Shown piece by piece: positions 14,045-46,700 of a stretch of DNA of 54,723 bases. Position numbers and translations under genes: made by a program. The notes beneath the pieces are model-generated. The model saw only the letters and a program-made list of their open reading frames with translations. It did no database searches and was not told the DNA's origin. Within the stretch, counting starts at the first letter, position 1, and every line of letters begins with the position of its first letter. Source of the DNA: a virus (Duplodnaviria; Caudoviricetes). The stretch lies in IMG/VR virus record IMGVR_UViG_3300047288_000037, positions 1 to 54,723 of that record, one strand, 5' to 3'.

Positions 14045-14971
14045 TTAGCCTAAAGTAACAACGCCCATTGCCAAAGCTTCTGGCTTCACTACTTTGTAGC
14101 CATACACTTGCAAACCACGGATGATATTACCGAATGTGGTTTCTGAACGCAGAGTTTCCATATTGGTCATCTGTGATGCAAATGTGAAGCCCATTTTGTG
14201 GCCAGCAACGATGCTGAACTTACCGCTTGATACTGCCAAGTTGTGGCTCATATACACAGTGAAACGGTCAATCATACCCAAACGACCATTACGCAGGATA
14301 GATGTACCATCACCTGAGATAGAAGCATCACGCAACTCAGATTTCTTAATCATACCAGCCATCTTAGCTGGGATAACTACGAAGCGGTCACCCTCTGGGC
14401 AGTTAGCTTCATCAAGTACAGTACCCAAGTCAACCAAGTAATCCAATACTGGGATTGTGCTTGTGTTACCGTCTTTGGTCAAAGCTGCTGGAGTAGCAGT
14501 AGTACCCAAATTGATGTTACCTGAAATACGACCAGCGTTAGCACCTTTGTTTAATGCTGAGATGTCTGGCAGAATGTCTGTCAGAACACGTTGGTCAATC
14601 TTAATCTTCATACGCTCTGAAGCGTCTTTAGACCATGTATCCATCAACTGGATGTCAGATTGAACTTTGTCCACATCATCTTCGATACACGCAAAGTATT
14701 CACCTTTGTCGATTACCAACTGGATTTTTGGTTTGTCTGGGTTCTCAACAGACAATGTCTGGCCTTTAACGTAGGTCTTGATTGTGATTTCAGGAGTAGT
14801 ACGGATGTTAACCGTATCACCCATCTGACGAATCTCACCTTCGTAGTCAGTATTAGAAATAGATGCCAGAACTGTAGCATCATAGAAATTCTCAATCAGC
14901 TTACCTGACCAGATTTCTGGAATAAAATTGCCGCTGTAATCAGGGCGGCCACCTGCAACTGGGAATGCCAT
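14045..14971 (-). CDS. Major capsid protein (HK97 fold)
   Basis: NFIPEIWS, DYEGEI..GDTVNI, GRLGMIDRFTVY.S and RGLQVYGYKVVKPEAL motifs; follows the scaffold. Confidence 0.9.
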   Translation of the reverse strand: MAFPVAGGRPDYSGNFIPEIWSGKLIENFYDATVLASISNTDYEGEIRQMGDTVNIRTTPEITIKTYVKGQTLSVENPDKPKIQLVIDKGEYFACIEDDVDKVQSDIQLMDTWSKDASERMKIKIDQRVLTDILPDISALNKGANAGRISGNINLGTTATPAALTKDGNTSTIPVLDYLVDLGTVLDEANCPEGDRFVVIPAKMAGMIKKSELRDASISGDGTSILRNGRLGMIDRFTVYMSHNLAVSSGKFSIVAGHKMGFTFASQMTNMETLRSETTFGNIIRGLQVYGYKVVKPEALAMGVVTLG

Positions 14972-16069: not shown

Positions 16070-16291
16070 TCATTTCGATTTTGCCGCTGCTATATCAGGA
16101 GCTTCTTTGACAAGTTTATACAACTCGCCTAAAACCTGACACCGCCCCTGCATAAGTGTCGGGTTATTTATTGCCTGTGGTAGGTTTTCCAGCTCATGAG
16201 TCCTCCACTCGGTAAGCCAATCCAAAACTTCCGGATAGTTACGAACCGTAATGGCTAAAGCCTTAACTACGTCTGGGCTTGGCCGAATCAT
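16070..16291 (-). CDS. Small head-assembly protein between portal and scaffold
   Basis: 73 aa helical protein with QGR motif; overlaps the portal stop. Confidence 0.65.
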   Translation of the reverse strand: MIRPSPDVVKALAITVRNYPEVLDWLTEWRTHELENLPQAINNPTLMQGRCQVLGELYKLVKEAPDIAAAKSK

Positions 16292-18342
16292 GCAGCTGCC
16301 CCACTCACACGGCTACTGACTGTGTTGCCCGCCATACCACCTTTTGGAGAACCGTCTGGTTGCAGCGGTGCGCCCTGCTGCGGCTGCTGTTGAGCAGCTT
16401 GAGCTTGGGCTTGCTGGTTACCCAGATACTTCGACTTCTCCCTAGATGGAACAACATCTTCCACAGGCATTTGCAACCCTTTAGCCACTTCACGAAGAAT
16501 CGCGGCGCGGCCATCCTTGCCCATAATTTCCGCATCAAGCGGGTTGGCGGTTGCGTTAAGAAATTCAATTCGGCGCACGTTGACTGTTTCTTTAACAGCC
16601 AAGTTAACTGCACCACGGGCAATGACTTCTGCATCGCCTTTAATACTTTCGTCATCATCGTACCGCATGTTGTACACAAACTGACGTTGTACAACTGGCT
16701 TAATGATGTCTGAGTCAATGTGACCCACAACCTGACGGATACCTTTACCTGCCGCACCCATAAGCATAGACAGGCCAGATGAGGTTCTACCTGCACCCTG
16801 TACGTTTAAATCACCGTACATATATGACGGAATACCTGAGTGGTCATCGGCAAGTTTGCTGAAGCGTTCGTAAACAGCCATCAATGTACTTGCATTGTCG
16901 TCTGGCTGGTGGAACTTAACAGCACCGCCGCTACCACCGACAGGGTCGCTTGTTGTCTGCCATATCTTCCATGGATACAGCTGAGTAATATCCTCATTCG
17001 CTGGAATGCGCTCAAGGTTAACTTCTACCTGAGGCCCGGATGAGATACCCATGTTGTTAATCAGTGCGCGGGCAGCAGCGTTACATACACTTTGCACGTC
17101 CTCAATAATTTCAGGAATACCTTTACCCCAGAATGCACCGGGGCATTTGATAAATGAGGTTTTCGCGTAAGGTTTCTGGCCCAGTGGGTCGTAATTCAGT
17201 ACGGCCTTGATAACGTAGTTACCAACAAGCCACACATTGGCATCATACTCACGTGCTTCATCTGGTACTTCTTCCTCAGTCATACCCCATTCACGCAACA
17301 TCTTGCCAGAAACTTTACCCCAAAACTCCAAGGCATCGTAGATTTCAGTCGGGCGGGTGTAGGAGTAGTACTTGCGCTCCTCCTCAGCCTTCTGCAATTC
17401 AATATCTTCGCTAATCCATGACTGACCATTGCCAATATCCAGCAACTTGCGGATTGCATCGTCATCATATCCGGGAACACCAATCAGCTCGGACAACTCC
17501 ATACGAGTCAGCGGGTGGTGTTCAAACAAATACCCATCTTCAATGCGGGTAATGCCCGGCTCTGGGTAAATGCGGAACGGGTCAACACGCTCATACTCAG
17601 GAGCTAAACGCTCTGCGGCATCGACAACAGTTTTACCTGTAACTGGGTCCCGCTTCCACCCAAGTGTACGTTGTCTACGTACTACTGGCCCCTTAACTAT
17701 GGCAGCGGGATAAGTGACGAGGTCAGTGATGAAGTCATTGAATGAATCAGCCCAGCCGCCTTGAGCAAACTGGTCTTGAATCTTGAGCTTCATCTTGTCA
17801 GTGCGATTCTGTGCTTCCTGCAAAATATGAAAGCGGTAGTCTTGGCTGACCATCTCCTTCAACTCAGCCATCTGAGCCTTAGTTGGAGCCTGACCTGTTT
17901 CTTCGATGAGTCCTAATACACGCTCAGCAAAGATGTCTTGAATATCCTGCACCTGTGCAGGACTTAAATCCGGAATGGGTGTAGCAACAATATCCCATGG
18001 TGGCGTACCTGTATCCAGCATAATGTCGCGCAACCAGCTTTCAGCGGCGCGGCACTTTACTTCGGTTATCATCATGTATATCTCAGAACCGCCTTGGGCC
18101 CTGATTTGTTGCAGCTTATCTGCATCATACTCACCGTTACGCTGACGTAACGCCTTAAGCATAATGTTCTCAATCGGCTTCTTCGCCTGCTGAGCTACAT
18201 CCCAACATGCACGGAGGTGACTAACCAAGCCAAGAATCATAGGTTGATTCTGACGTTCTGCTAACGCTTTCTCTGCGAGTTCTCTTTCCTCGCGCATCAT
18301 GGTCGCGTTATCCACGACACGTAACAGGGTTAGTCCAGCCAT
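16288..18342 (-). CDS. Portal protein
   Basis: 684 aa; RVDPFRIYPEP, FWGKGIP, DDHSGIP..MYG and RTSSGLSMLM motifs, Q-rich C-terminus. Confidence 0.9.
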   Translation of the reverse strand: MAGLTLLRVVDNATMMREERELAEKALAERQNQPMILGLVSHLRACWDVAQQAKKPIENIMLKALRQRNGEYDADKLQQIRAQGGSEIYMMITEVKCRAAESWLRDIMLDTGTPPWDIVATPIPDLSPAQVQDIQDIFAERVLGLIEETGQAPTKAQMAELKEMVSQDYRFHILQEAQNRTDKMKLKIQDQFAQGGWADSFNDFITDLVTYPAAIVKGPVVRRQRTLGWKRDPVTGKTVVDAAERLAPEYERVDPFRIYPEPGITRIEDGYLFEHHPLTRMELSELIGVPGYDDDAIRKLLDIGNGQSWISEDIELQKAEEERKYYSYTRPTEIYDALEFWGKVSGKMLREWGMTEEEVPDEAREYDANVWLVGNYVIKAVLNYDPLGQKPYAKTSFIKCPGAFWGKGIPEIIEDVQSVCNAAARALINNMGISSGPQVEVNLERIPANEDITQLYPWKIWQTTSDPVGGSGGAVKFHQPDDNASTLMAVYERFSKLADDHSGIPSYMYGDLNVQGAGRTSSGLSMLMGAAGKGIRQVVGHIDSDIIKPVVQRQFVYNMRYDDDESIKGDAEVIARGAVNLAVKETVNVRRIEFLNATANPLDAEIMGKDGRAAILREVAKGLQMPVEDVVPSREKSKYLGNQQAQAQAAQQQPQQGAPLQPDGSPKGGMAGNTVSSRVSGAAA

Positions 18343-18845: not shown

Positions 18846-20234
18846 TCAAGTCCATCCTGTAGATGCAACACGTTTTACATCACGCTTCTGCACCCGCGCT
18901 ACACCATCGCCTACGGCCCCAATATGCAGCATCAGATACTGGAGTGCCTCAGCTACGTGTGAGTGTTTGTTCTTGTCAATCTCACCGTCACCTTTGGGCT
19001 TGTAGCGGTAGCCGCCCATCATGGCAGCTTTAAGATGTGTACAGCCGGGGTCAAGCAGGAACGCCGGGTCACCATCCACCTGCCGCATGAGGAAGTCATC
19101 CACAGCGTTAATACGCGCCGACACACTGTTCGTCTTGGCTGGAATGACCTTGAATTTTTCGGCCTTGATAATATCCACAGCACTGCGCTCATCAGTCTGC
19201 GCCCGCTGGATGCCTGCCGGGTCAGTCACGATGAGTATGGGAGCCCCACCGAAACGCTCGTAGAGCATCGGCTTGAGTAATGACCGCACGAAGCGTTGCA
19301 CACCCATGTCGAAGCTGACGCACTCGCCGAGTATCAGTGCCCGACCACGCGGGTCCTGCTGCCCGATAACCGCAGCTGGCGTAAGCCCCAAGTCCATACC
19401 CACGATGATGGGTCGTATGCCGTTGTTGATAAAGCGCAGCCGCTCCCGCGCCATGTGGTAGTCAGTCCTGAAGTATTTATACACTGGCATACCGGCTGAG
19501 GCCAGCCCGTACTCACCGTCAATGTAAACGCGAACATACTCCTCGCTGCGACCCTGTGTGTCGTAGTATCCGTCTGGCAGGTTCTCGATGTTCTCCGCCA
19601 TTGCGCTTCGACCTGACGGTTGCTTGAATACAGCCCAGCCGTTGTTGTTCGGTGACACGCCATCCTTAGGGTCTAGCCCTTCCATCTGGTAGTACCACCA
19701 TGTATCCATAGTCGGCGGGTTGGTATCGCCCCACATCCCGTGCCATGTCGGACCGCCATCCTTCGCAGACGGGAAACGCCCCACACGCTTAGACATCGCA
19801 TCGACAATGTCAGGATGAATATCCCTACACTCGTTGAACCACGCGAACGTAAGCTCCAGTGAGTTCAAGTTAGCCACGTCATCCGCGTCATCCAGTGCAC
19901 GGAACATAATCTCGCACTCAACGTCACCGACTTTGAAAAAATACGTCTTGGTCGTACGCATGTACTGACCGCACTGCCCCGGCGGGAACCAGTCTAGGAA
20001 GGTTTTAATGGTCGTATCCTGCAACTGCCGCGCAGTTTCCCGGACAATCGCCGCCCGGCTCTTGCGTATGCCATGCTGGTTGGGCTCCTGCATGGAAGCA
20101 CGGCGAATAATCTCGAACGATGAGGTTACAGACTTGCCCGAACCTACCGGACCCATGAGAACGCGCATCTTGGCGTTGCTTTCCATGAATTTGGCCCCAG
20201 TTGGGGGCGGCGTGTAATCTATAGTTAACCCCAT
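18846..20234 (-). CDS. terL: Terminase large subunit
   Basis: Walker A GPVGSGKS, Walker B-like AWFNE, coupling motif DTNPP, RNase H nuclease motifs GMDLG, DPAG and HSHVAEALQY. Confidence 0.93.
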   Translation of the reverse strand: MGLTIDYTPPPTGAKFMESNAKMRVLMGPVGSGKSVTSSFEIIRRASMQEPNQHGIRKSRAAIVRETARQLQDTTIKTFLDWFPPGQCGQYMRTTKTYFFKVGDVECEIMFRALDDADDVANLNSLELTFAWFNECRDIHPDIVDAMSKRVGRFPSAKDGGPTWHGMWGDTNPPTMDTWWYYQMEGLDPKDGVSPNNNGWAVFKQPSGRSAMAENIENLPDGYYDTQGRSEEYVRVYIDGEYGLASAGMPVYKYFRTDYHMARERLRFINNGIRPIIVGMDLGLTPAAVIGQQDPRGRALILGECVSFDMGVQRFVRSLLKPMLYERFGGAPILIVTDPAGIQRAQTDERSAVDIIKAEKFKVIPAKTNSVSARINAVDDFLMRQVDGDPAFLLDPGCTHLKAAMMGGYRYKPKGDGEIDKNKHSHVAEALQYLMLHIGAVGDGVARVQKRDVKRVASTGWT

Positions 20235-20740
20235 TATACTGACTCCCGTAGTTTTATAGCATCATCTTTACTTTTACGCCGCCCATACCGCCTGCCTGCT
20301 ACTTCAACTACCCATAACCCACTAGATTTCTCTAAATAAACCCCAGATACCCCGGAAGTATTGTTTCGTAATAACCCTCGATTAAGGCAGTTTTCTGACC
20401 TACTTACTTCACGTAAATTACATATTCTATTATCCGCTTTATCCCTATTTATATGGTCTATTTCTATTGGGTCATACCCATAAACAATCTTCCATATAAT
20501 TCGGGCTGCAACATATGCTACTCCGTCTAAAAGCCCTACTCTATACCCAATATTTGATGTAGTTGTAAACGCTTCTGTGCCAGCAAACTTAGCGTTCCAA
20601 TTATTACACGCCCATTCAGCTGACCTTCTCTTGTTACTGAACATATCTGGTGTTCTGGATTTCCAATACATCAATCCGGACTCTGAATCATACCGAAGTC
20701 TAGCTAATAGATACTCTTGTGGTGGTAATTGTTTTTTCAT
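20234..20740 (-). mobile_element. HNH homing endonuclease 3 (HNH_3 + AP2-like)
   Basis: LRYDSESG, IDHINRDKADNRICNLREVS..EN and NNTSGVSGV motifs. Confidence 0.9.
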
Positions 20741-21699: not shown

Positions 21700-22188
21700 C
21701 TAGTTTTTTCCGTGATTAGGATGGTAGCCTAGTGCTTCATACGCTGCGTCTCTTACTTTTGCGGCTTCTTCCATTGTGTCAAACGTACCGAGGCATATTC
21801 GTTTGTGTTTATACCCTATTCTAATCCTATACCCTGTACTAACTTTAGTAATTCCAGTTTCACCAGAAGTATTGTTACCATATTTAGGTAGGTTTTGCTG
21901 GTTCTCTTGGATAGAAACCTCACGTAGATTTTCGATTTTATTATTCCGTTTATCCCTGTCTATGTGGTCTAGTGCTTTAGAAGGCCAGTCTCCATGGACA
22001 ACAGCCCACACCACCCTGTGTATGGCGTATTGCTTACCATTTACCTTAACATATCCATAGTCTCGGTATCTAGCGGCTTTGTATTTTATGTACGCAGGTT
22101 TTCCAGAGCTAATACGGATTAGAACTCCGCTGGTTACGTCATACCGGAATATTTTTCGGAAGTCTATTTGTGGTTGTTTAATGTTCAT
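21700..22188 (-). mobile_element. HNH homing endonuclease 4 (HNH_3 + AP2-like)
   Basis: FRYDVTSG, HRVVW, LDHIDRDKRNNKIENLREVS..EN and LGTFDT.EEAA..RD motifs. Confidence 0.9.
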
Positions 22189-22368: not shown

Positions 22369-22405
22369 ACTTTTTGTCATTTTTTATGGTTATGGCAATC
22401 TGAAA
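22369..22405 (+). promoter_or_regulatory. Early promoter copy 1
   Basis: ACTTTTTGT-N19-AATCTGAAA: TTGTCA, 16 bp spacer, extended -10 TG-G-CAATCT. Same blocks and spacing recur at 24005. Confidence 0.6.
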
Positions 22406-22462
22406 TTGTGCTGATACAGCACTGATTCACAAAGTTCTTTAACAACATTTAGGAGATTTAAA

Positions 22463-22726
22463 ATGGCTCAACAAGCTACTGTTAAGAGGTCTATCGCCCC
22501 AGTTACTTTCACTATCGAAGTAACAGCCACGAGGGTCAATGAAAACGGTACATTCTCTGGCATCACAGCCAAGATTGTTAAACAACCGAAAGGTTGCGAG
22601 TTCATGACCAGTGTACCACCAATGGCAGGCGGAGCGGTCTACTTCAAGACACAATCGCTGGAAGGCATCACGCTAGTCGAAGGTGATAGTCCGAAAGCAC
22701 CAGCCGAGAAGAAGAAATTGTTCTAA
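22463..22726 (+). CDS. Early protein, paralogue A (87 aa, beta-rich)
   Basis: AGGAG SD; about 55% identical (hand alignment) to 24107..24373. Confidence 0.85.
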   Translation: MAQQATVKRSIAPVTFTIEVTATRVNENGTFSGITAKIVKQPKGCEFMTSVPPMAGGAVYFKTQSLEGITLVEGDSPKAPAEKKKLF

Positions 22727-22730
22727 TCGG

Positions 22731-22764
22731 TAACTAGGCTAGGCAGGGCAACCTGCCTAGTTTT
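22731..22764 (+). repeat. GNRA hairpin unit 1
   Basis: TAACTAGG then CTAGGCAGG-GCAA-CCTGCCTAG, followed by TTTT. Confidence 0.8.
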
Positions 22765-22789
22765 CTCAATCAAGCTAGGAGCGAAAGCG

Positions 22790-22966
22790 ATGAAAGCTAG
22801 AAAACCACGTAAGTACGAACCAGTTCGTTATGTAGTCAAATGGATTGAAGGCAACATGATGTACTTCAGAGCGTTCAAACGAGATGCCACGGCAATGAAG
22901 TTCCAAGATTATCTAATCGAAGAACTTGGTATTCCAATGGCAGATGTACGAGTAATGACAAAATAA
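22790..22966 (+). CDS. Early small protein (58 aa)
   Basis: Hand-translated MKARKPRKYEPVRYVVKWIEG...VRVMTK; AGGAG SD. Confidence 0.75.
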   Translation: MKARKPRKYEPVRYVVKWIEGNMMYFRAFKRDATAMKFQDYLIEELGIPMADVRVMTK

Positions 22967-23000
22967 CGAGGCAGGCTAGGGAAACCTAGCCTGAGTACAT
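22964..23000 (+). promoter_or_regulatory. GNRA hairpin unit 2 (split ribosome-binding site)
   Basis: TAACGAGG-[CAGGCTAGG-GAAA-CCTAGCCTG]-AGTACAT-ATG. Confidence 0.75.
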
Positions 23001-23105
23001 ATGAAACAAATAAAGAAAATTGTTTTGCATCCTGATAACCCATTGTTTATAGCCACAGGATTAGCACTATGGCTGTTCATGTATGAGTTACTAACCCACT
23101 ACTAA
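23001..23105 (+). CDS. Early membrane peptide (34 aa)
   Basis: MKQIKKIVLHPDNPLFIATGLALWLFMYELLTHY; exactly fills the space between hairpin units 2 and 3. Confidence 0.65.
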   Translation: MKQIKKIVLHPDNPLFIATGLALWLFMYELLTHY

Positions 23106-23136
23106 CGAGGCAGGCAGGGCAACCTGCCTGAATGAT
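23103..23136 (+). promoter_or_regulatory. GNRA hairpin unit 3 (split ribosome-binding site)
   Basis: TAACGAGG-[CAGGCAGG-GCAA-CCTGCCTG]-AATGAT-ATG. Confidence 0.75.
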
Positions 23137-23286
23137 ATGCACAAATCAAAATTCATGGTGATGTACACCACAGCAATACACACAACAGACTCATCAATCA
23201 CTTACGGCTACATCGGCCTGCTCAGACTGAGGTTCAAACTCTGGGTATGTAAGTGCTACGACATCAAGGTACTACCAATCGAGTAA
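23137..23286 (+). CDS. Early small protein (49 aa)
   Basis: MHKSKFMVMYTT...KLWVCKCYDIKVLPIE; ends 4 nt before a terminator. Confidence 0.6.
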   Translation: MHKSKFMVMYTTAIHTTDSSITYGYIGLLRLRFKLWVCKCYDIKVLPIE

Positions 23287-23290
23287 TCCC

Positions 23291-23317
23291 AGCCCGGCGA
23301 AAGCCGGGTTTTATTTT
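23291..23317 (+). terminator. Intrinsic terminator closing the first early operon
   Basis: AGCCCGGC-GAAA-GCCGGGTT followed by TTATTTT. Confidence 0.85.
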
Positions 23318-23399
23318 GTCCGTTGTTTTTGTGTATATAAAACAAACCATACGCCGGGGGGTGCAGGCATGACATAGCGACACATCTGACAGTATCGCG

Positions 23400-23930
23400 C
23401 GGGGTGGTTACGTTTTTGGCGGTAAAAGTGGGGCGGTTACATGGTTTTGCACCAAGTTAGTGCATAATCTACAATAATCTACGAAATAATCTAAGTTTTA
23501 AAATAATCTAAGCCGGTTACATTCCATAGATTTTTTTGGGTGTTTTGTAACCACCGCATGAATACTGGGTTTGAGCCATATATATATATAAATAATCTAA
23601 ATAATCTAAATAATCTACGATTTTTTTATACACACCCCCCGCGCGAGAGTTTTTTATGTTACATAAGGGTAACCGTGTAACCATCTAACTGTTTAACTCC
23701 CCCCTGTCTTACGATTTTATGCGTAGATTATTAGATTATTTAGATTATTGCCTCTGAAACCCAAGCCCAGCAAGGAGGTTACAATAATCTAAATTTAGCG
23801 GTTACATTATATCGCAGTTTTTTAGTTAGATTATTTCAGTACTTTTTGTGTAACCGGTTACATTATGTTATGAGCAAACGCCCTGTGGCTTACTCCGTGG
23901 TTACAAAATACAAATCAATGCGGTTACATA
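23400..23930. repeat. Non-coding iteron-like region (candidate origin or packaging/terminus region)
   Basis: 12 copies of ATAATCTA/TAGATTAT, 12 copies of GGTTAC/GTAACC, an (AT)n tract at 23578-23590 and no long ORF. Confidence 0.75.
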
Positions 23931-23986
23931 ACCCTTATACACAAACAAATACATACAAAAACAATTACAAAGTAAGCGAACCTCGC

Positions 23987-23999
23987 TAAGTCGTTGATT
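23987..23999 (-). promoter_or_regulatory. IHF-binding site
   Basis: Minus strand AATCAA-CGAC-TTA is an exact match to WATCAANNNNTTR. Confidence 0.6.
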
Positions 24000-24004
24000 T
24001 TTAA

Positions 24005-24041
24005 ACTTTTTGTTCGAAACCCAGCCCGTGCTAATCTGAAA
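24005..24041 (+). promoter_or_regulatory. Early promoter copy 2
   Basis: ACTTTTTGT-N19-AATCTGAAA with extended -10 TG-C-TAATCT. Confidence 0.6.
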
Positions 24042-24106
24042 CCTGACCAAGCCGCCTTGGTTTTATATTATTTTTATTTTATTTACACACTTTAGGAGTA
24101 GTTATT

Positions 24107-24373
24107 ATGGCTATTACAGCTACGTTGAAGAAGTCTATTAAACCAGTTACATTTTACCTAGAAGTTACTGCTACCAAAGTCAATGAGAACGGTACGTTCA
24201 GTGGTATTACTGTACAGAAGGTATCATCATCCATTAAGAACGAAACCATTAGGGCATCTATTCCACCCCAAGCTGGTGGTGCTATGTACCTTAAATGTGA
24301 TGACCTTAAAGGCCTTGAGTTCGTAGAAGGTACACTGACTGGTGCTACCGTTGAGAAGAAAAAGCTGTTCTAA
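24107..24373 (+). CDS. Early protein, paralogue B (88 aa)
   Basis: AGGAG SD; shares PVTF..EVTAT.VNENGTFSGIT, PP.AGGA.Y and EKKKLF with paralogue A. Confidence 0.85.
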   Translation: MAITATLKKSIKPVTFYLEVTATKVNENGTFSGITVQKVSSSIKNETIRASIPPQAGGAMYLKCDDLKGLEFVEGTLTGATVEKKKLF

Positions 24374-24381
24374 CAATCAAT

Positions 24382-24414
24382 GGAGGAGGCGGTAGCAATA
24401 CCGCCTTTGAACCT
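24382..24414 (+). promoter_or_regulatory. GNRA hairpin unit 4 (split ribosome-binding site)
   Basis: GGAGG-[AGGCGGTA-GCAA-TACCGCCT]-TTGAACCT-ATG. Confidence 0.75.
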
Positions 24415-24777
24415 ATGACTTTACGCATTGAACATTTAGAGCGTATCAACAACCGTGATAGTGCTAAGTATGTGTCATACAAGCAAGAGTTTCAGGGTAG
24501 CAATATGTATGCAATACACCTTGAAGGTAAAAACAAACATACATACGTGGTGTATAGCTACGGCCCTCACTGGCCTATGTGGGTTTATGACTATGGAACC
24601 AGAGAGTGGTACGGTATGCTAGATAAGTTTAGCCGTACAACCAGTAAACAACAAGGGCAATCACACCCTGATGTACCAAACGACAGCATCCATTGGTATG
24701 GTGAAGATATGATGATTAAGATTGCCGTTCATGGTTTTAACGGTGCATTTGCAGACAGATTGGGGGTAACAGCATGA
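24415..24777 (+). CDS. Early phage protein (YVVYSYG...SRTTSKQQ type)
   Basis: 120 aa; motif pattern recalled from early genes of other phages. Confidence 0.75.
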   Translation: MTLRIEHLERINNRDSAKYVSYKQEFQGSNMYAIHLEGKNKHTYVVYSYGPHWPMWVYDYGTREWYGMLDKFSRTTSKQQGQSHPDVPNDSIHWYGEDMMIKIAVHGFNGAFADRLGVTA

Positions 24778-26787: not shown

Positions 26788-27339
26788 ATGAAATATAAAA
26801 AACGTGAGTTTCATGGGCTGTCTAAACACCCACTATACAATATCTGGGCAAGTATAAAACAAAGGTGTACTAACCCAAAAAGTGCAGGGTATAAGTTATA
26901 TGGGGCACGAGGTATAACTATGCAGCCTGAGTGGGTTACGTCATTTGCTACGTTCTTAGAAGATGTTGGGGAACGACCTCACGGAAGTTCTATTGACCGC
27001 ATAGATAACAATAAAGGGTATGTTCGTGGAAACATTAGATGGGCTACACCTCAAGAGCAGTCTAATAATACCCGAACTAATAGGTATGTAACTGTTGATG
27101 GTGTAACAAAAACGCTTGCACAATGGGCAAGAGAATTAAACATTTCATATCGATTACTACGCAGTAGGTTAGACCGTGGGGTAACACCGCCAGAATTATT
27201 TCAGGTGAAAGCAATGCCAACAAAGACAGCTACATTTTATGTAGAAGTAAACGGGCAGCTAATGACTATAAAAGAAGCCGTATTACACACTGGACTTAGT
27301 AGGTCTACTTTATATTACAGATACCGAAAGGAAAAATAA
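26788..27339 (+). mobile_element. HNH homing endonuclease 5
   Basis: HGLSKHPLY.IW..IKQRC, YGARGI and SIDRIDNNKGY..GNIRWAT..EQ.NN motifs. Confidence 0.9.
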
Positions 27340-28190: not shown

Positions 28191-28273
28191 TGGAACTGAT
28201 ATTTAATTGGGATTTTATTGCTGGTTACATTACTGGCATGATTGTTTACTGGTTACTTTGGAGGAAAAAATAA
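28187..28273 (+). CDS. 28-aa single-pass membrane peptide
   Basis: MMELIFNWDFIAGYITGMIVYWLLWRKK; ATGA overlap upstream and TAATG overlap downstream. Confidence 0.6.
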   Translation: MMELIFNWDFIAGYITGMIVYWLLWRKK

Positions 28274-29418
28274 TGACACAAGTTGCACAACAAACTGATG
28301 AACCAAAAGTAATGACGCCTGATGAAGAAGCAAAGCTGGTGCGCCGTATGGCTAAGGCACGTACCTCACTGGTACTTGAACACGCTTTCATTGGTAACAT
28401 TGCACTAAACCTGCCAGTCAAGCTGGACTACACCATAAAGACAGCGTGTACCAACGGCCATGAGATACGCTACAACCCATGGTTTGTGAACGATATGTCT
28501 GATGAAGAAGTGAAGTTCTTGATTGCACACGAGTGCTTTCATCCTATGCTTGAACACCCGACACGTATCAGAGGCCGCGACCACCGTAAGTTTAACCAAG
28601 CTGGCGACTATGTAATCAACCAACTACTGACTGATGAACACATTGGCAAGATGCCTGCTGGTGGCCTGCTTAACAAGTCAATCTATGATGCTGGTGGCGG
28701 TACGACAGACGGTATCTACAACATCTTGCCTGATAATCCTGATGGTGATGACCCACTAGATGATTGCGAAGATAGCGGTGGCACACCAGCCGAACAGCAA
28801 CAGCTTGCCGCAGAGTGGAAAGTTAAGGTAGCCCAAGCAGCACAGGCCGCTAAGATGATGGGTCAGTTGTCAGCTAACATGGCACGACTGGTAGAAGATG
28901 TACTTGCACCGAAGGTAGACTGGCGTGATGTACTGCGTAGGTTCTTATCCAAAGCGCGTAGTGATGAACGCTCATTCGCTAGGTTTAACCGCCGCTTTAT
29001 CTCACAAGGATTGTACTTGCCTAGTGTGAGTGGTGAATCCATGGGTGAGATTGTGTTTGCCGTAGACTGCTCAGGTTCTATTGACCAGCATACCATTAGC
29101 CAGTTTGCCGCAGAGATACAGTCAAGCAAAGATGAATGTAACCCACTAGCAATCCATGTGGTGTATTTCGACAGTGAAGTATCACACTACGATAAGTTTA
29201 CACGTGATGATGAAATCGAAGTCAAGCCACACGGCGGTGGCGGTACAGCATTCAGCCCTATCTTTGCATACTTAGCAGAGCATAATGTAGAGCCAGTCGC
29301 TTGTATCGTACTGACTGACTTGTATTGTAGCGACTTTGGTCCAGAGCCTAGCTATCCAGTGCTATGGGTATCAACCCATGCAGATGAAGCCCCATGGGGT
29401 GAAGTGGTGATGATGTAA
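28273..29418 (+). CDS. DUF2201-type zincin metallopeptidase + vWA domain protein
   Basis: TACTNG, HECFH (HExxH), N.AGDYVIN, MIDAS VDCSGS, GGGGT.F and LTD; GGAGG SD before ATG 28273. Confidence 0.88.
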   Translation: MTQVAQQTDEPKVMTPDEEAKLVRRMAKARTSLVLEHAFIGNIALNLPVKLDYTIKTACTNGHEIRYNPWFVNDMSDEEVKFLIAHECFHPMLEHPTRIRGRDHRKFNQAGDYVINQLLTDEHIGKMPAGGLLNKSIYDAGGGTTDGIYNILPDNPDGDDPLDDCEDSGGTPAEQQQLAAEWKVKVAQAAQAAKMMGQLSANMARLVEDVLAPKVDWRDVLRRFLSKARSDERSFARFNRRFISQGLYLPSVSGESMGEIVFAVDCSGSIDQHTISQFAAEIQSSKDECNPLAIHVVYFDSEVSHYDKFTRDDEIEVKPHGGGGTAFSPIFAYLAEHNVEPVACIVLTDLYCSDFGPEPSYPVLWVSTHADEAPWGEVVMM

Positions 29419-33633: not shown

Positions 33634-34140
33634 ATGAGTAGAAAAAACACACCCGAAAGTTTTTGGCAAAGGGTAGCCAAATCAGATGTAGATAGTTGCT
33701 GGGAATGGCAAGGGTCATGCACTAGCAGTGGATACGGTAGTGTAGCTTGGCATGGTAAGGTTGTTCAAGCACATAGGGTAGCTTATTACTTAGCCATCGG
33801 TGGTATCCGATTACATACCGAGTTTAGGTTAGAAGGTAGAGCAAAGAAATATAAACGGTTCGTACTACATAAGTGCGATAACCGTAAATGCTGTAATCCA
33901 TCGCATTTATTTCTGGGTTCTATGCGTACTAATCTACTAGATGCGTATACCAAAAAACGTAAGTACCAACCACGTAGCACCCATGTTAATGCGAAGTTAT
34001 CTGCACAACAAGTGCGTGATATACGATTCGCATATGATACAGGTGCTATGACACAAGTACCTTTAGCAAAGATGTACGGTGTAAGTCAGAGAGTAATTAG
34101 CCTAATTGTTAGACGGGAATCATATAAGGACATAGAATGA
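33634..34140 (+). mobile_element. HNH homing endonuclease 6
   Basis: CWEWQG, AHRVAY, VLHKCDNRKCCNPSHLFLG and a C-terminal HTH. Confidence 0.9.
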
Positions 34141-40882: not shown

Positions 40883-43738
40883 ATGAACACGCTGGATTTC
40901 TTTCGGCGAGTACTCCCATCTGAGGGGCTATACTGTATAGCCAGCTTTACTAAAGACCATCCTGCACCAAGGCATGGTTTTTTCACCTCAGTAGATGAAC
41001 TCGCAAAGGTGGCTCTTGCGCTTGACGCAAGGGGAAACGCAACATACTACGCTATCGCTGCATATAACGATAAAAAACGTAAGCAGGAATTTGTCAGTAG
41101 CATCCGTGTAATCGCTATGGATGTAGACTGCGGCGAAAACAAACCATATCCAACATACAAGGAAGGCCTACTGGCACTGGGCAAGTTCGTGACTGACTTC
41201 GGTATGCCGAAGCCTATGGTCGTGTTCTCAGGTGGCGGCTTGCATGTGTACTGGATATTAGAAGAAGCACTGGACTATGATACGTGGAAGCCATTGGCAG
41301 AAGCGATGAAGGCCTTAGCCTTGAACAGTGGCTTTATGATTGACCCTGCCGTTACTGGTGACGCGGCGCGAATCTTACGGCCAGTCGGTACGACAAACAA
41401 CAAGAACGGTAATACGGTAAAGTTATTGGTGGATGCACCAAATGTACCGCTCATCTACTTGCGTTCTATACTGGAACAACACAAAGTAATTCCAAAGGCT
41501 CAACCGGTAAGCCAGAGGTCAGCATCCAGCAGTACGTTGTTGGATGCTCTAGCAGTTAAGGTGGAGTTCAATCCATCCAGACCAGACAAAATTTACAACG
41601 CTTGCGCTCAAGTGCAATGGGCTGTGGACAACCAAGATAAAGTAGAAGAACCTACTTGGTATGGTGTGTTAGGTATCGCTGCGTACTGCGAGAACCCTGA
41701 GTATGTAGCCATTGAGTGGAGTAAGAACCATCCCGGCTTTGACCAGCAGAATACCATCGACAAGATGGCTCACTGGAAAGAACAGGTATCAGGACCGACA
41801 ACCTGCAAACGCTTTGCTGAACTCAACTCTGGCCTATGTAAAGGCTGTAAATTCAAAGACAAGATTACCAGCCCAGCTATACTCGGTGTAACTTATGTTG
41901 AAGCTGAGTCAGAGGCTGCCAAGTTTGACCCGATTGCTTCCGATGTGCCAATGCCACGGGCGTTCAAGCGTACCACGGCAGGTATCGTAATCAAGATTGA
42001 GGACAATGAGATTCCAGTATGCTCATTCGACATATACCCAGTGGGCTATGGTAAGGATGAAAGCTTGGGGTATGAAGTTGTACGGTATATGTGGAATAGA
42101 CCACACGTTGGATGGACTGAGTTGGTCTTGCGACAGGCCCATCTGGTTGATAACAGTAGTGAGTTTGGCACTACGATAGCAGACCAAGGCATCGTGCTTG
42201 AGTCGGCATCTAAGACGAAGAATTTTCAAATGCTATTACGTTCATACATGGAAGAATTAAAACAGAGGCGTGGTCTGACCAACCTGTATTCATCTATGGG
42301 TTGGAAGGATGGCTACAATCAATTCATCATAGGCAATACGCTACTGCGCCGTATGCCAGATGGCAGTATATCTCAGGAGTCTGTAAACCTCGCATCATCA
42401 ATAGCCAAAGTTGGTGACCAGATGTATGGTACAGCAGGCTCACGTGATGAGTGGGTTAAGTTCACCAAGATTCTTGAAACAGCCAAGATGACACCACACA
42501 AGTTCTTGCTAGGCTTTAGCTTTGCCACACCACTACTCAAGATGACAGGCATTAAAGGTCTGACACTATCCATCTACGGCGAAACTGGTGCAGGTAAAAC
42601 ACTTGGGCAGTTGATGATGCAATCAGTATGGGGAAACCCAGACCAGCTACACTTCGGTGGTAAGTTCACACAGAATAGTATGTTCGCTAGGCTGTCTACT
42701 CATGGCAATCTACCCATGACTATTGACGAAACCACGATGATGGATGCCGATGAAGTAGGCGATATGCTCTACTGGGTAACACAAGGTAAGGACAAAGGCA
42801 GGTTGGGTCGTGCCGCCGAAGAACGAGCGGCTCGTGAGTTCCAGACTACCGCTACATTATCCACAAACAAATCCATACAAAGTATGCTCTACGCTGGTGG
42901 CAGTGCGTCAGACGCGCAGCTTGCTCGATTGCTTGAGTTTCACATGCCAGTGCATCCACTATTGAGTAAAGGTACGGCAGTTGGTCGCCAGCTGTATATG
43001 TTCCTCATGCACAACTATGGGTGGGCAGGCATTGAGTTCATTAAGAACGTGATGGAGTTGGGTGAGGACAGAGTAAAGGCTATGGTGCAACACGCTATCG
43101 CTGAGTTCCCCACCAGATACGGTGTCGTGTTCTCAGGTAACGAACGCTTCTGGGAAGTAGGTGTAGTGCTTGCCGACTTGGGTAATAGACTAGCCAAAGA
43201 CTTCGGTTTAATCCAGTATGAAGTGGAAGACGCAACCGAGTGGGCACTAGAAGAACTTGTTGGTATCAAGAAAAATGCACTGGCTAACCGTGTTGATGCG
43301 TTCGATTTACTGGGCGAGTTCATCAACGAGCACATGGACTCGGCTATTACCGTGATGCACACCGATGGTCAGAAGCCAATGAAAGATAGCACCAGACCTT
43401 ACGTTGCTGAGATTACAGTACGCTATGACCTGTACCGTAAGACATTCGATGGCAAGTTCACCAGCGGTACGGTGATGATTGAGCGAACCAAACTCAGACG
43501 CTGGTTAGCCAAACGTGGTATTGACTACAAAGGATTCCTCAACGAGTTTGATGCTGAGAACATCAACGCTACACCAAAATCACAGAAGGCATACTTCGGT
43601 AAAGATGTTGGCATTAAAATTCCACAGTGCTATGTGGTAGGCATAAACTTAAACCACCCACGACTACAAGGTATCTTGGACGATGCCGAGCAATCAGTAG
43701 GCGATTTAAGTTTGGGTCAGTTGAAAGCAGTTAGTTAG
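40883..43738 (+). CDS. AEP-type primase fused to a DUF927/SF3-like helicase
   Basis: MDVD, SGGGLHVYW, RILRPVGTTN, Cys cluster (TTC...CKGC), GWK, Walker A GETGAGKT, Walker B IDE. Confidence 0.88.
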   Translation: MNTLDFFRRVLPSEGLYCIASFTKDHPAPRHGFFTSVDELAKVALALDARGNATYYAIAAYNDKKRKQEFVSSIRVIAMDVDCGENKPYPTYKEGLLALGKFVTDFGMPKPMVVFSGGGLHVYWILEEALDYDTWKPLAEAMKALALNSGFMIDPAVTGDAARILRPVGTTNNKNGNTVKLLVDAPNVPLIYLRSILEQHKVIPKAQPVSQRSASSSTLLDALAVKVEFNPSRPDKIYNACAQVQWAVDNQDKVEEPTWYGVLGIAAYCENPEYVAIEWSKNHPGFDQQNTIDKMAHWKEQVSGPTTCKRFAELNSGLCKGCKFKDKITSPAILGVTYVEAESEAAKFDPIASDVPMPRAFKRTTAGIVIKIEDNEIPVCSFDIYPVGYGKDESLGYEVVRYMWNRPHVGWTELVLRQAHLVDNSSEFGTTIADQGIVLESASKTKNFQMLLRSYMEELKQRRGLTNLYSSMGWKDGYNQFIIGNTLLRRMPDGSISQESVNLASSIAKVGDQMYGTAGSRDEWVKFTKILETAKMTPHKFLLGFSFATPLLKMTGIKGLTLSIYGETGAGKTLGQLMMQSVWGNPDQLHFGGKFTQNSMFARLSTHGNLPMTIDETTMMDADEVGDMLYWVTQGKDKGRLGRAAEERAAREFQTTATLSTNKSIQSMLYAGGSASDAQLARLLEFHMPVHPLLSKGTAVGRQLYMFLMHNYGWAGIEFIKNVMELGEDRVKAMVQHAIAEFPTRYGVVFSGNERFWEVGVVLADLGNRLAKDFGLIQYEVEDATEWALEELVGIKKNALANRVDAFDLLGEFINEHMDSAITVMHTDGQKPMKDSTRPYVAEITVRYDLYRKTFDGKFTSGTVMIERTKLRRWLAKRGIDYKGFLNEFDAENINATPKSQKAYFGKDVGIKIPQCYVVGINLNHPRLQGILDDAEQSVGDLSLGQLKAVS

Positions 43739-46700
43739 AAATTTCGAACCCGTACAAGGCGGCTAGTTCTTCGGCCTCTTGTCTACCTGCTCTGGCAGAT
43801 GACTTGAGTGCCCTAGCTGCCAGTGGTTTTGATGCTTCTCTATACGCTCTGTTTACACCACCAGTAAAGTTTCTAATCTCAAGGCGTGTACCTTTAACAT
43901 CGGCATTCCACTCACGAACATATTCTTTTACGTTTGCTAAACGCTCAGAGTCACCATTTAGTCTGGCTGCAACAGCCTCACGGATAGCCTCACTTCTAAT
44001 CATTTGACCATAGCGTTGCTCTTGGCCATCAGCCATCATCCAATCCATCTGTACCTGAGCACGACTTGGGTAGAAGCCTACTGCCTTTCCGATAATTTCC
44101 CACGCAGTTACATCCTGAGAAACTACATAGCCTTTGCTGTCTAAGATTGCACCTGTGTTTGCGTACTTCCATGACTCGGTAGCGTTCTTCAATGCACGAA
44201 CAGGTGCGTCTGTAAGTATCTTGCTGATTGGCTGTCTGCCTGTAATCACAGCAGGGATAGTACCAGTTGCCCACTCAAATGCACCGAGCATGAATGAGGT
44301 TGGAGCACCAGCCAAGTTCTCTACCTCACGCAGTTTTTCCTGAGCAGATGCCGATGGTTTAAACAGGGCAGTACCCGGAACTATATCGCCAAGACCTAAA
44401 CGGTTAGAGAATGACCATCCTGTGGTAGCATCGAGCAAGCCGCGCATCATTACTGGGGTTAGTGCAGCACCCAGTTCATCACCAAATGCACCACGAGTCA
44501 GACGAGCAAATTCTTTCTCTACTGAGCCGGACTGTAATCCTAGACGCTGCATCAAGCCATCAATAATATCCAGCAAGTCGTCAGCACCGGGCAGACCGCG
44601 TAAGCCTGACAAAAGAATCAATGAACCTAGCATGATAATCTGGCCGTTACGGTCCATGTTCTTGAGCAGTTGCAGCATGATGATTGGATACTGCTTGTAC
44701 ATATACACGAAAGACATTAGACCACCACGGAAGAACGCAGGGCGGTTGTACTGTGAGTAGTCACCTTGAGTAGCATCGAGGGCTTTGTCAGCGGCGTTAC
44801 GTGCAGCATCATCGGCTTTCATTGGGCTTACACCAGCAGCAATCTGGCGTTCATATTCACCACGATAGGCAGCAAGTACAGTTACACGGCGGTTAAACTG
44901 CTCTGAGTAACTGAACGGGAACATCCATGTCTGAACAAATTTCTGGAAGGTTGGGTTACCCATGAAGCCTTTGCGCCCACGCACTGTACCAGTCAGTGCA
45001 TTGAACTGAGCAGCATCCAAGCGTTGTTCTTCGGTTAAGTCTTTCAGGAATCGTAACTCACCAGCAGTTAATCCATCTTTGCTCTCAGTTGCACCAGTGC
45101 GTTCAAGTTCATCTAGCTGTGCCTGTAAGAAGTCTACATTGATGTACTTAGGATTGGCGGCAGATATAGCGAACTTGGATAGCAGTGCACCAGCACGACC
45201 AGCACCGAGGCCCAGACCGAAGTTGTTCTCTGGGTTGTATGATGACAGGTATGCCCATGAGTTGGTAGGCAGTGACAGCATCTGCGTAATACCGGTAGCG
45301 ATAGAACCACCAAGTTGTGCTACCGCAGCCCAAGTACGTGCGCTCAGTGAGAACTGGTTGTTGTTCCAGAAGTCATCGGCAAACACAATGTCACCAGTAG
45401 AATCTTGCCAGTCAAGTTGTGACTTAGCGCGTTCTTTGTACCAGTTACCACGTAATACGTTAGTGTCACCAACTTTCTCATTGGCTTTTTCAAAGTAAAA
45501 TTTTTCTTGGAAGTACTCACGCGCTGCCAGTTCTTTAGCTGGGCCAGTAGCGGCTTCCCACTTGGCTTTAAGTTCTGCCAGCTTATCACGGTCACCGAAC
45601 CAGTTGCGGTTATCTTCCAGCACACCATCGAACTGGTGACGGAATGTTTTGTTCGCTGCGACATATGCCTGCTGCTCTAGGAATGCAGATGAACTACGGA
45701 CAACATCTTTATCCCAGCCCGGCACACCTGCACGTTGCAAGTTAGCACGAGCCCTAGAGTTCTGGGCAGTAACTTTCTTAATCAAAATCTCACGGTCAGC
45801 CACTGGCATCTGAACACCCAAGCGGCTCAAAGCGTACATAACATCATCGTAGTGCATGATGTCTACCAGTGCTGGTGTAGTTTCTACGTCACTGACGATG
45901 GCTTTCAAGTACACTGGAACCACGCGGTTGTTAGCATCTCGCATGGTGTACTCACCAGTCAGCAGGCCGTTTAACTCCTCAGCATATCCAATGGATTCAT
46001 CTTTCTTCTCAGTCATGAACAGCGGTAAGGAATCCTGCTGCCCTTGATGCAGCTTAACTGGCTCCTCATTACCATCAGCGTCAATAGTGTATGCCTGCAC
46101 ACGAACTTGGAATTTGCCTCGGCGAGATAGGGGGGCATAGCCACCGGCAATACTGCGCTTGGCGTATAGTGAGTCATCATTCAATGAGATGGTGAACGTA
46201 CTGCGTTCTTCCATGGCGTAAGCCACAGGCCAGATTGATGAGTCGGTGATGGCATCTGTATCAGGGTCAATCTTCACGCGCAGTTTATCACGCAGACCAG
46301 TAACCAAAGTCTTAACTTCGTCAGGAGTGTAGTTAGGTAGCTTGGTTGCGAAGTCATTAAGCGCGTTGTCATTGTAGAATGAACGGGCAAAGCGCATCTC
46401 AACATAATCCACAGCGTCAGCCTGAGATACCTCATTCATCTTGAATCGGTTGTTCTCGTAGGATGCACCCTCCATAGCGATACGGTCATACTCATCGGAT
46501 ACGGCTGTGATGAAGCGGCGTTCAGCTTCGGTCAGGGTTTTCTTAAATGCCCGGTCAATACCACGGTTGAGTACACGTTCTTGCTCATACATAGCACCAG
46601 CATACTTGGCATTCAGAACATCCATCTGGCTCTCATTGATAGCTTCACGGAACTGCAAGTACATTTTGTACTGGATACTATCTTCGGTCAGGTCTTTAGC

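Follow-up and report, generated by a model that had tools for sequence, protein, structure and literature searches.

The 22,369-24,414 bp region of the viral record IMGVR_UViG_3300047288_000037 (Duplodnaviria; Caudoviricetes) carries two similar small genes, called here paralogues A and B, and the question raised by this locus is whether they represent the duplication of a whole promoter-gene-hairpin module and what task could be served by keeping both copies. The window analysed was the whole record, a single contig of 54,723 bases, to which all positions refer. The comparisons described below showed that the module is indeed present twice, that the pair is retained in related phages under purifying selection and that its products resemble no named protein family in the collections searched. 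The elements of the two copies are as follows:

22369-22405, + strand: predicted promoter P_A (-35 TTGTCA at 22374-22379, 16-nucleotide spacer, TGG at 22393-22395, -10 CAATCT at 22396-22401)
22408-22422, + strand: leader hairpin of A (GTGCTG-ATA-CAGCAC), which starts at the predicted transcript start; centroid energy -7.7 kcal/mol
22448-22455, + strand: Shine-Dalgarno (SD) sequence TTTAGGAG of A, 7 nucleotides upstream of the ATG
22463-22726, + strand: paralogue A, 87 amino acids
22736-22763, + strand: GCAA-loop hairpin after A (-20.8 kcal/mol, z -4.17), followed by UUUUCUC
24005-24041, + strand: predicted promoter P_B (-35 TTGTTC at 24010-24015, 16-nucleotide spacer, TGC at 24029-24031, -10 TAATCT at 24032-24037)
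24045-24062, + strand: leader hairpin of B (GACCAAG-CCGC-CUUGGUU), followed by a U/A-rich tract and listed as terminator-like by the terminator scan
24091-24098, + strand: SD sequence TTTAGGAG of B, 8 nucleotides upstream of the ATG
24107-24373, + strand: paralogue B, 88 amino acids
24385-24408, + strand: GCAA-loop hairpin after B (-16.9 kcal/mol, z -3.81), which ends 6 nucleotides before the ATG at 24415

Full-length alignment of the two proteins gave 57% identity (E 1e-31), and both end in EKKKLF. The composite box ACTTTTTGT-N19-AATCTGAAA was found exactly twice in the 54,723 bases, both times on the + strand, by a search tolerating up to three mismatches, and both copies had none; its expected count is 0.08, and two or more copies were obtained in 0 of 100 shuffled sequences. 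Pairwise DNA alignment of module A with module B showed that the boxes are identical and that the coding sequence can be aligned, the spacer and leader having diverged; a fold as good as those of the hairpins after A and after B was seen in 0 of 200 shuffles each. The sequence-only reading of this region had described two paralogues of 87 and 88 amino acids with about 55% identity, twin boxes of equal spacing, a shared SD sequence and a GCAA-loop hairpin after each gene, and had concluded from these that a complete module was duplicated. All of these points were confirmed: the boxes are exact and one lies ahead of each paralogue, TTTAGGAG precedes each ATG by 7-8 nucleotides and both hairpins are present and stable.

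To follow the pair in related phages, family members were located with a profile hidden Markov model on six-frame open reading frames (ORFs) in 63 IMG/VR loci and 62 metagenome loci. Altogether 129 loci were scored, the window included, and since near-identical and same-population loci are among them, the counts refer to loci and not to independent lineages. Two full copies on the same strand were present in 70 of the 129 loci; the second copy was cut by the contig end in three and internally broken in another three (L057, L061 and L179), and 51 loci were too short for scoring. In L057, L061 and L179, one copy is frameshifted or truncated internally, which may reflect real loss or assembly error. 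A single copy with at least 1,800 nucleotides of flank on each side was found in only two loci (L062 and L121), which represent one high-GC lineage (GC, guanine plus cytosine). Thus, 76 of the 78 informative loci have two copies or the remains of two, separated by 325-1,405 nucleotides (median 1,057). Pairwise Nei-Gojobori estimates of the ratio of nonsynonymous to synonymous substitution rates (dN/dS), from which L063 was excluded in both sets, had a median of 0.134 and a maximum of 0.325 for the A orthologues (161 usable of 210 pairs) and a median of 0.199 and a maximum of 0.436 for the B orthologues (262 usable of 300 pairs); both paralogues are under purifying selection. The proposal that selection keeps both copies, and the suggestion to look for paired copies in relatives, are therefore both answered in the affirmative by the 70 complete pairs against two clear singles, the dN/dS values and the separation of the two copies in the phylogeny.

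A careful tree was built from the 54 distinct proteins that the window and the IMG/VR loci contain. It separated first from second copies into two clades with 99/99 support, and A and B of the window each grouped with the corresponding copies of L001 and L002, while both copies of L063 branched near the root on the A side. The clades also have their own invariant residues, KRSIAPVT and PPMAGGA in A versus KKSIKPVT, PPQAGGA and K-C-[DE] in B. A FastTree phylogeny of 109 proteins, which included the metagenome loci, was poorly resolved: the B copies of the window clade fell on the A side with support 81 and a long branch, and the basal lineages L063, L134, L136 and L125/L126 had both of their copies in one clade. 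The duplication is thus old in the main clade, while recurrence or homogenisation may have taken place elsewhere. In L125/L126 the copies stand in tandem only 325 nucleotides apart, each with a promoter-like site, an upstream direct repeat of about 40 nucleotides and a terminator. In L125 this repeat (containing CAGTCTCGTCGGTTATCGTGCGTA) lies at 1289-1335 and 1841-1887, ahead of each promoter-like site, suggesting that there, too, an upstream element was duplicated together with the gene.

The upstream regions of the relatives allowed the boxes to be read as signals. YAATCT (CAATCT or TAATCT) was present in 33 of 34 distinct first-copy upstream sequences, and among these 33, TG stood at -15/-14 in 26 and TTGACA exactly 16 nucleotides upstream in 20, with six more reading TGACAx, that is, the same hexamer at 17 nucleotides. 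Similarly, 31 of 32 distinct second-copy upstreams had YAATCT, accompanied by TG in 24 and by TTGCGT 16 nucleotides upstream in 23. Taken together, YAATCT was kept in 64 of 66 distinct upstreams and TG at -15/-14 in 50 of the 64, while the -35 differs systematically between the paralogues (TTGACA for A and TTGCGT for B). Based on the 16-nucleotide spacing, the TGn and a -10 hexamer with A at position 2 and T at position 6, the boxes are predicted to be a sigma-70-type promoter with an extended -10 (TTGACA or TTGCGT, 16 nucleotides, TGnYAATCT), in which ACTTTTTGT overlaps the -35 (TTGTCA and TTGTTC in the window clade). The promoter nature assigned to them earlier is backed by these phylogenetic footprints. 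A simple consensus scan misses P_A and P_B, as only two or three of the six -10 positions match TATAAT; the pattern TGNYAATCTG has four sites in the genome, two of which are P_A and P_B. Two other promoter types were considered and set aside. Bacteroidetes-type promoters have the pattern TTTG ... TAnnTTTG, and by eye only 3 of the 6 specified -7 positions match in the case of ACTTTTTGT. The hairpin promoter of an N4-type virion RNA polymerase, prompted by the weak match of a giant virion-module protein described below, was dismissed because the boxes have sigma-70 geometry and the giant protein has no Pfam or PDB match.

Directly after the -10, at the predicted transcript start, a hairpin was found in every lineage, its sequence differing from one lineage to another; its likely role would be that of a 5' stabiliser. 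Conserved TTCTTTAAC precedes the SD of A, and TTCTTTAAC together with TAGGAG is kept in the A-type leaders of relatives, whose B genes retain the SD as TTTAGGAG or TTCAGGAG. The downstream side is equally constant: stable hairpins followed the gene in 24 of 24 distinct A-downstream segments (median -21.5 kcal/mol) and in 27 of 27 distinct B-downstream segments (median -18.2 kcal/mol), mostly with a longer U-rich tract than in the window and often with GTGACAG or TAACC loops instead of GCAA. Since the U tracts of the window are short and interrupted (UUUU-C-U-C after A and UUUGAAC after B), the hairpins after A and B are better called attenuator-like. The conservation of promoter, leader hairpin, SD, gene and downstream hairpin indicates that the whole unit is a conserved cassette, and this arrangement would be expected to give high expression of a small protein with partial read-through. 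Cassette A is followed by the next elements:

22790-22966, + strand: orf58, a conserved small gene after A, within the short A transcription unit
23291-23318, + strand: GAAA-loop hairpin (stem-loop at 23291-23310) with the U tract UUUUAUUUU; -15.6 kcal/mol, z -3.68, found by the terminator scan

The latter looks like an intrinsic terminator at the end of the A unit, in which two further GNRA-loop hairpins lie at 22972-22993 and 23111-23130. For orf58, tblastn gave matches in 88 of 125 related loci, and no family was found in Pfam or PHROG. After B, orf120 (24415-24777) is conserved in 46 related loci. Part of its SD-like GGAGGAGG is base-paired within the GCAA hairpin after B, which it directly adjoins (24382-24415), and as the ATG of orf120 lies 6 nucleotides past the hairpin, folding would fix the distance between SD and start, which suggests that translation of orf120 could depend on the structure.

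The sequence-only reading did not recognise the protein family, and the profile and structure searches were in agreement with this. No Pfam family was found for A, and B gave only a chance-level match (E 0.19, 10.8 bits against a cut-off of 26.7); no PHROG family was detected for either. A PDB profile search with the family alignment revealed no sequence relative (best E 0.21), the ESM Atlas gave no usable match and no family name was found in any source examined. Profile search of 1.84 billion representative proteins yielded 57 matches at E <= 0.001, mostly of about 85-95 amino acids. The long matches P0089, P0103 and P0106 are Chlam_PMP, beta-helix or Por_Secre_tail proteins and were judged spurious, probably reflecting the resemblance of a GGA[ILM]Y-like stretch to the GGAI repeat motif; the longer members P0066, P0094 and P0101 had no Pfam domain and no informative fusion. 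AlphaFold models of B (54-row alignment, mean predicted local distance difference test score (pLDDT) 79.3, predicted template modelling score (pTM) 0.56) and of A (85 rows, mean pLDDT 81.4, pTM 0.58) agreed with each other. In both, residues ~10-70 were confident and consisted of beta strands only, while the last 15-20 residues were of low confidence (in B, residues 77-87 had a pLDDT below 50; in A, the two final ten-residue blocks scored 61-64). VIA-align comparison of both models with 48,161 chains gave a best Z of 2.4 and listed no oligonucleotide/oligosaccharide-binding (OB) fold; the chains at this level (WRKY, aerolysin-like, CNA B-repeat and lactococcin 972) were treated as noise. Foldseek found nothing at E <= 0.001 for the B model in the PDB or the viral library BFVD. 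As judged from sequence and predicted structure, A and B are a new family of small proteins with no matching solved fold.

Few strands have partners in the monomer model, which would fit an oligomer. The A-B complex model scored 0.58, while the best of three controls scored 0.00, and its runs showed at least 93% contact agreement with partner pLDDT of at least 69. Among solved complexes, 116 of 157 reach the mark used for such models, against 2 of 215 mismatched pairs, and the band up to 0.60 contains 18 of the 157 solved complexes and both passing mismatches. The heterodimer proposed earlier thus received weak support from modelling as an A-B dimer, in a test by which a hetero- and a homodimer are indistinguishable.

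The most conserved part of the family is its very end. In 40 sequences reaching down to 26% identity to B, K at -3 was the sole invariant column, F at -1 was at least 90% conserved and -2 was L, F or V, whereas the 12-15 residues before the tip varied freely; K85 was invariant among 85 sequences. The tip was kept in the single-copy lineage L062 of 60% GC (...EKKKLF) as well as in lineages of 37-55% GC, so its partner must be conserved either across the hosts or across these phages. A K-[LFV]-F tip conserved at about 30% overall identity and borne by a variable, low-confidence linker has the signature of a tethered docking peptide. The idea of an invariant KKKLF docking tail therefore stands as regards the docking-like behaviour, while the literal KKKLF is not invariant and the constant features are limited to K at -3, a hydrophobic residue at -2 and F at -1.

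Between the two cassettes lie two further elements:

23440-23860, both strands: iteron array of AATAATCTA and AACAATCTA repeats, together with GGTTACA
23841-23874, + strand: third copy of ACTTTTTGT with TG-T-TATGAG, a possible tandem promoter upstream of B

A[ATC]AATCTA has 17 sites in the window, 13 of which fall within 23300-24100. All paired relatives with a spacing of about 1 kb had an array of AATAATCTA/AACAATCTA between A and B, and its geometry was similar in the four relatives mapped site by site (L063, L134, L138 and L166). GGTTACA repeats were restricted to the window, L001 and L002, other lineages having other second repeats. This array is probably a replication origin or a regulatory hub. 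Its core (A-A-T/C-A-A-T-C-T-A) shares YAATCT with the -10 boxes at 22396-22401 and 24032-24037, which suggests that a common factor may bind both promoters and iterons. The family also occurs without the array, as in the tandem pair of L125/L126 and in the single-copy L062/L121, which has no AATAATCTA, while L063 keeps the iterons but has promoters without AATCT. Iteron binding as a universal role of the family was downgraded because of the members without an array.

The window contains four exact copies of ACTTTTTGT, three of them within 22369-24013. The third copy had been described as a gene-less promoter-like element starting at 23841; the ACTTTTTGT is real, while the absence of a gene is not, as B lies 266 nucleotides downstream on the same strand. 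For this reason it could serve as a putative second, tandem promoter of B. Its putative -10 (TG-T-TATGAG at 23866-23874) has no AATCT box, and of the relatives only the closest, L001, shares the copy; L002 lacks its downstream part or has another sequence there. The B leader hairpin with its long U/A tract could attenuate transcripts that come from this site.

The place of the cassettes in the genome bears on the time of their expression. The genome looks like that of a lytic podovirus, in which the + strand from 22463 to 43738 carries the early and replication genes (an ATPase, a family-A DNA polymerase, a helicase, a PD-(D/E)XK exonuclease and a DUF927 primase-helicase), and the - strand codes for tail-fibre and internal-virion proteins as well as the following:

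14045-14971, - strand: major head protein
16288-18342, - strand: portal or adaptor protein
18846-20234, - strand: large terminase
43731-51881, - strand: virion-module protein of 2,716 amino acids
51894-53717, - strand: SLT-domain protein

The genes of A and B are the first on the + strand, beside a leftward promoter-like site TTGACT-17-TAAAAT at 22223-22195, and the sign of the GC skew flips near 22-24 kb. From this gene layout and the GC-skew switch, the duplicated modules sit at the divergence point of the two transcription directions, and the paralogues would be among the first-expressed, immediate-early genes. No RNA polymerase gene was recognised among the window ORFs scanned. The 2,716-residue protein had no Pfam or PDB match; its residues 1913-2671 matched weakly (E 4.6e-42) the C-terminal part of a 3,431-position PHROG of unknown function. 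HNH-endonuclease PHROG matches were obtained in five ORFs (20234-20740, 21700-22188, 26788-27339, 28207-29418 and 33634-34140), which is an unusually large number of putative homing endonucleases for a genome of 54.7 kb; two of these ORFs directly adjoin the divergent promoter region.

The stretch occurs mainly in freshwater and wastewater metagenomes. A search for RNA data sets containing it found none: four sequencing runs compared with it gave contigs only, the one possible RNA run among them being marked as probably DNA, and the metatranscriptome of the source study gave no match, which speaks neither for nor against expression. Neither the DNA of the region nor protein B had a match among 50,697 phage records by DNA search and tblastn. 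By capsid, the closest cultured relative is Rhizobium phage RHph_TM3_14A (54% identity). This phage lacks a family member, none of the ORFs of its 15-kb early region ends in K[LFV]F, and full-text literature search on its name found nothing. Among species-representative genomes, 15 pattern matches included no relative, and thus no prophage or host clue was obtained from them.

Considering these results, we favour, with a probability of roughly 40%, the explanation that A and B are abundant early takeover adaptors or inhibitors which dock by their tail to a conserved host machine. According to this, a lytic freshwater podovirus would possess two paralogous immediate-early cassettes, each made up of a host sigma-70-type promoter, a 5'-end hairpin, a strong SD, an ORF of about 88 codons and a terminator-like hairpin that lets only part of transcription pass, a layout likely to result in high output of the small protein. 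Cassette A would head a short unit of A, orf58 and small ORFs, closed by the terminator ahead of the iteron array, and cassette B the long rightward early and replication operon. The protein would consist of a beta-rich core of about 60 residues, probably dimeric, a variable flexible linker and the tip K-[L/F/V]-F-COOH; the core would bind the target, and the tip would insert into a hydrophobic pocket on a machine that is conserved among the hosts of these phages. Being abundant, the protein would work in stoichiometric amounts as an adaptor or inhibitor in early takeover. With two paralogues, two core specificities, or a heterodimer, could then be combined with a common docking tip. Motif resemblance points to ClpX and the beta sliding clamp as candidate receptors, a phage-encoded partner being equally possible.

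Several observations weigh against this explanation. The tail matches only two of the five positions of the clamp motif and lacks its conserved Q, and the ClpX resemblance is a pattern that a plain degron would fit equally well. K at -3 is not absolute either, as the B copy of L001 ends in EQKELF. The dimer is weakly supported, and close paralogues can pass for each other in such models, while the picture of a single old duplication fails in the deeper lineages of the 109-protein FastTree phylogeny. Furthermore, takeover genes typically vary more and are distributed more patchily than this family, which favours a core role in replication or transcription. A more specific form of the takeover explanation, which we consider improbable, is a heterodimeric, abundant immediate-early adaptor of new fold, whose identical K-L-F tails tether it to the N-domain or pore of ClpX or to the beta clamp, whose different cores capture different targets and which is coupled in cis to the phage origin via the shared YAATCT core. 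If true, it would be a two-headed phage tether rerouting host proteolysis or replication in the first minutes of infection.

The main rival, possible although less probable than the takeover adaptor, is an accessory of the origin or replisome: the beta core would bind single-stranded DNA or the AATAATCTA iterons of the origin and the tip would recruit a phage or host replication protein, much as in the core-linker-tip layout of the single-stranded DNA-binding protein (SSB) or in an abundant origin-architectural protein. A conserved iteron array lies between the genes in every paired relative with a spacing of about 1 kb, the promoter -10 YAATCT contains the iteron core, and both the core-linker-tip architecture and the core-gene behaviour under strong purifying selection fit such a role; moreover, no SSB family was found among the 40 window ORFs scanned against PHROGs, in a genome where polymerase, helicase, primase-helicase and exonuclease are present. 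On the other hand, the tip is basic (K-x-K-L-F) while the tail of bacterial and T7 SSBs is acidic, the family also occurs without an array (L125/L126 and L062/L121) and L063 has iterons but promoters devoid of AATCT; no match of the models to an OB or other DNA-binding fold was seen (best Z 2.4), which decides little. The same sequence core could be used by A and/or B as autoregulatory transcription factors that bind YAATCT sites, namely their own -10s and the iterons, and shut off or time early transcription with the tail contacting RNA polymerase. A non-consensus -10 is retained by 64 of 66 distinct upstreams, as if this box were under a second constraint, the iterons carry the same core and the genome has just two such promoters, one per paralogue. 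We regard this as rather unlikely, given that the outgroups have the protein with other -10s (CAGTGT in L063, CACATT in L062, TAGGTG-like and TATATG in L125), no DNA-binding fold was recognised in the models and the net charge of the core is only slightly positive by manual count.

Two more explanations concern what the products do to the host or to themselves. The sequence-only reading had also offered anti-defence proteins, that is, first-expressed sponges or inhibitors of host immunity with two specificities. Their small size and their position as the first genes behind strong host-type promoters would fit the example of T7 gene 0.3 and of many counter-defence genes, and with two diverged copies a pair of targets could be covered. 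Counter-defence genes are usually patchy and fast-evolving, whereas this family is near-universal in a fixed position with dN/dS of 0.13-0.20, which fits a core function better; it resembles no known family in the Pfam, PHROG, PDB and BFVD searches and carries the same tip across hosts of very different GC content. The proposal gained no positive evidence and now appears very unlikely. Hardly more credible is that the tail is only a ClpX-type C-terminal degron giving a short pulse of the protein, and that duplication raised the dosage with no functional divergence. A C-terminus of the basic-x-basic-hydrophobic-hydrophobic type is like the RRKKAI of MuA and both copies keep the tip, but the invariant residues of each clade, the 99/99 separation of the clades and the systematic difference in -35 strength, TTGACA for A against TTGCGT for B, argue for divergence of function or regulation and not for mere dosage. 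As nearly all relatives retain the two copies, the paralogue pair probably has a core job in early infection.

Members of the family come only from a single group of uncultured podoviruses, mostly of freshwater, in which the family occupies the slot of the first and probably most abundant product. The conserved pair with its shared tip offers a testable handle on the start of infection, as the receptor of the tip could reveal a new way of engaging a host hub, and the promoter-leader hairpin-terminator cassette may be a ready-made strong expression module for unknown hosts. The finding would be of no more than local interest should the product prove to be an ordinary SSB-like or regulatory protein. 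It is a solid lead on an uncharacterised family and not a surprise of principle.

Among known C-terminal tags, the C-motif-2 ClpX tag of MuA is CILEQNRRKKAI, ending in RRKKAI (PMC12723719). The tails of A and B share with CILEQNRRKKAI the basic cluster followed by two hydrophobic residues at the free C-terminus and the K at -3, while they read K-x-K-L-F in place of R-R-K-K-A-I and have an aromatic last residue. The clamp-binding consensus is QL[SD]LF, and Mor is reported to be functional with only DLF (PMC12867686). Compared with this consensus, position 1 is K and not Q, position 2 is variable (A/T/V/K/R/Q) with no L and position 3 is K, whereas the terminal L-F and the location of the motif at the end of a small phage protein are the same.

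At the level of whole proteins and cassettes, the likeness extends to better-known examples. Bacterial SSB ends in ...DDDIPF, T7 gp2.5 has an acidic tail ending in F and SspB has a C-terminal ClpX-binding peptide. A and B would share with these a folded oligomeric core, a variable linker and a short, conserved tip with a hydrophobic or aromatic end; they differ in the basic nature of the tip and in a core of about 60 residues for which no match to an OB or Sm-like fold was seen (best Z 2.4). In the lytic podovirus T7, early transcription starts from the tandem, strong host-type promoters A1-A3, and gene 0.3 is the first abundant small gene. Similarly, predicted sigma-70-type promoters open the early region here, RNA hairpins come after a small first gene and the product would be an abundant early protein acting stoichiometrically. 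The differences from T7 are that the protein is unlike Ocr or any named family, that a non-consensus YAATCT -10 with an extended TG is conserved and that the whole cassette is duplicated, both copies having been retained across the phage group.

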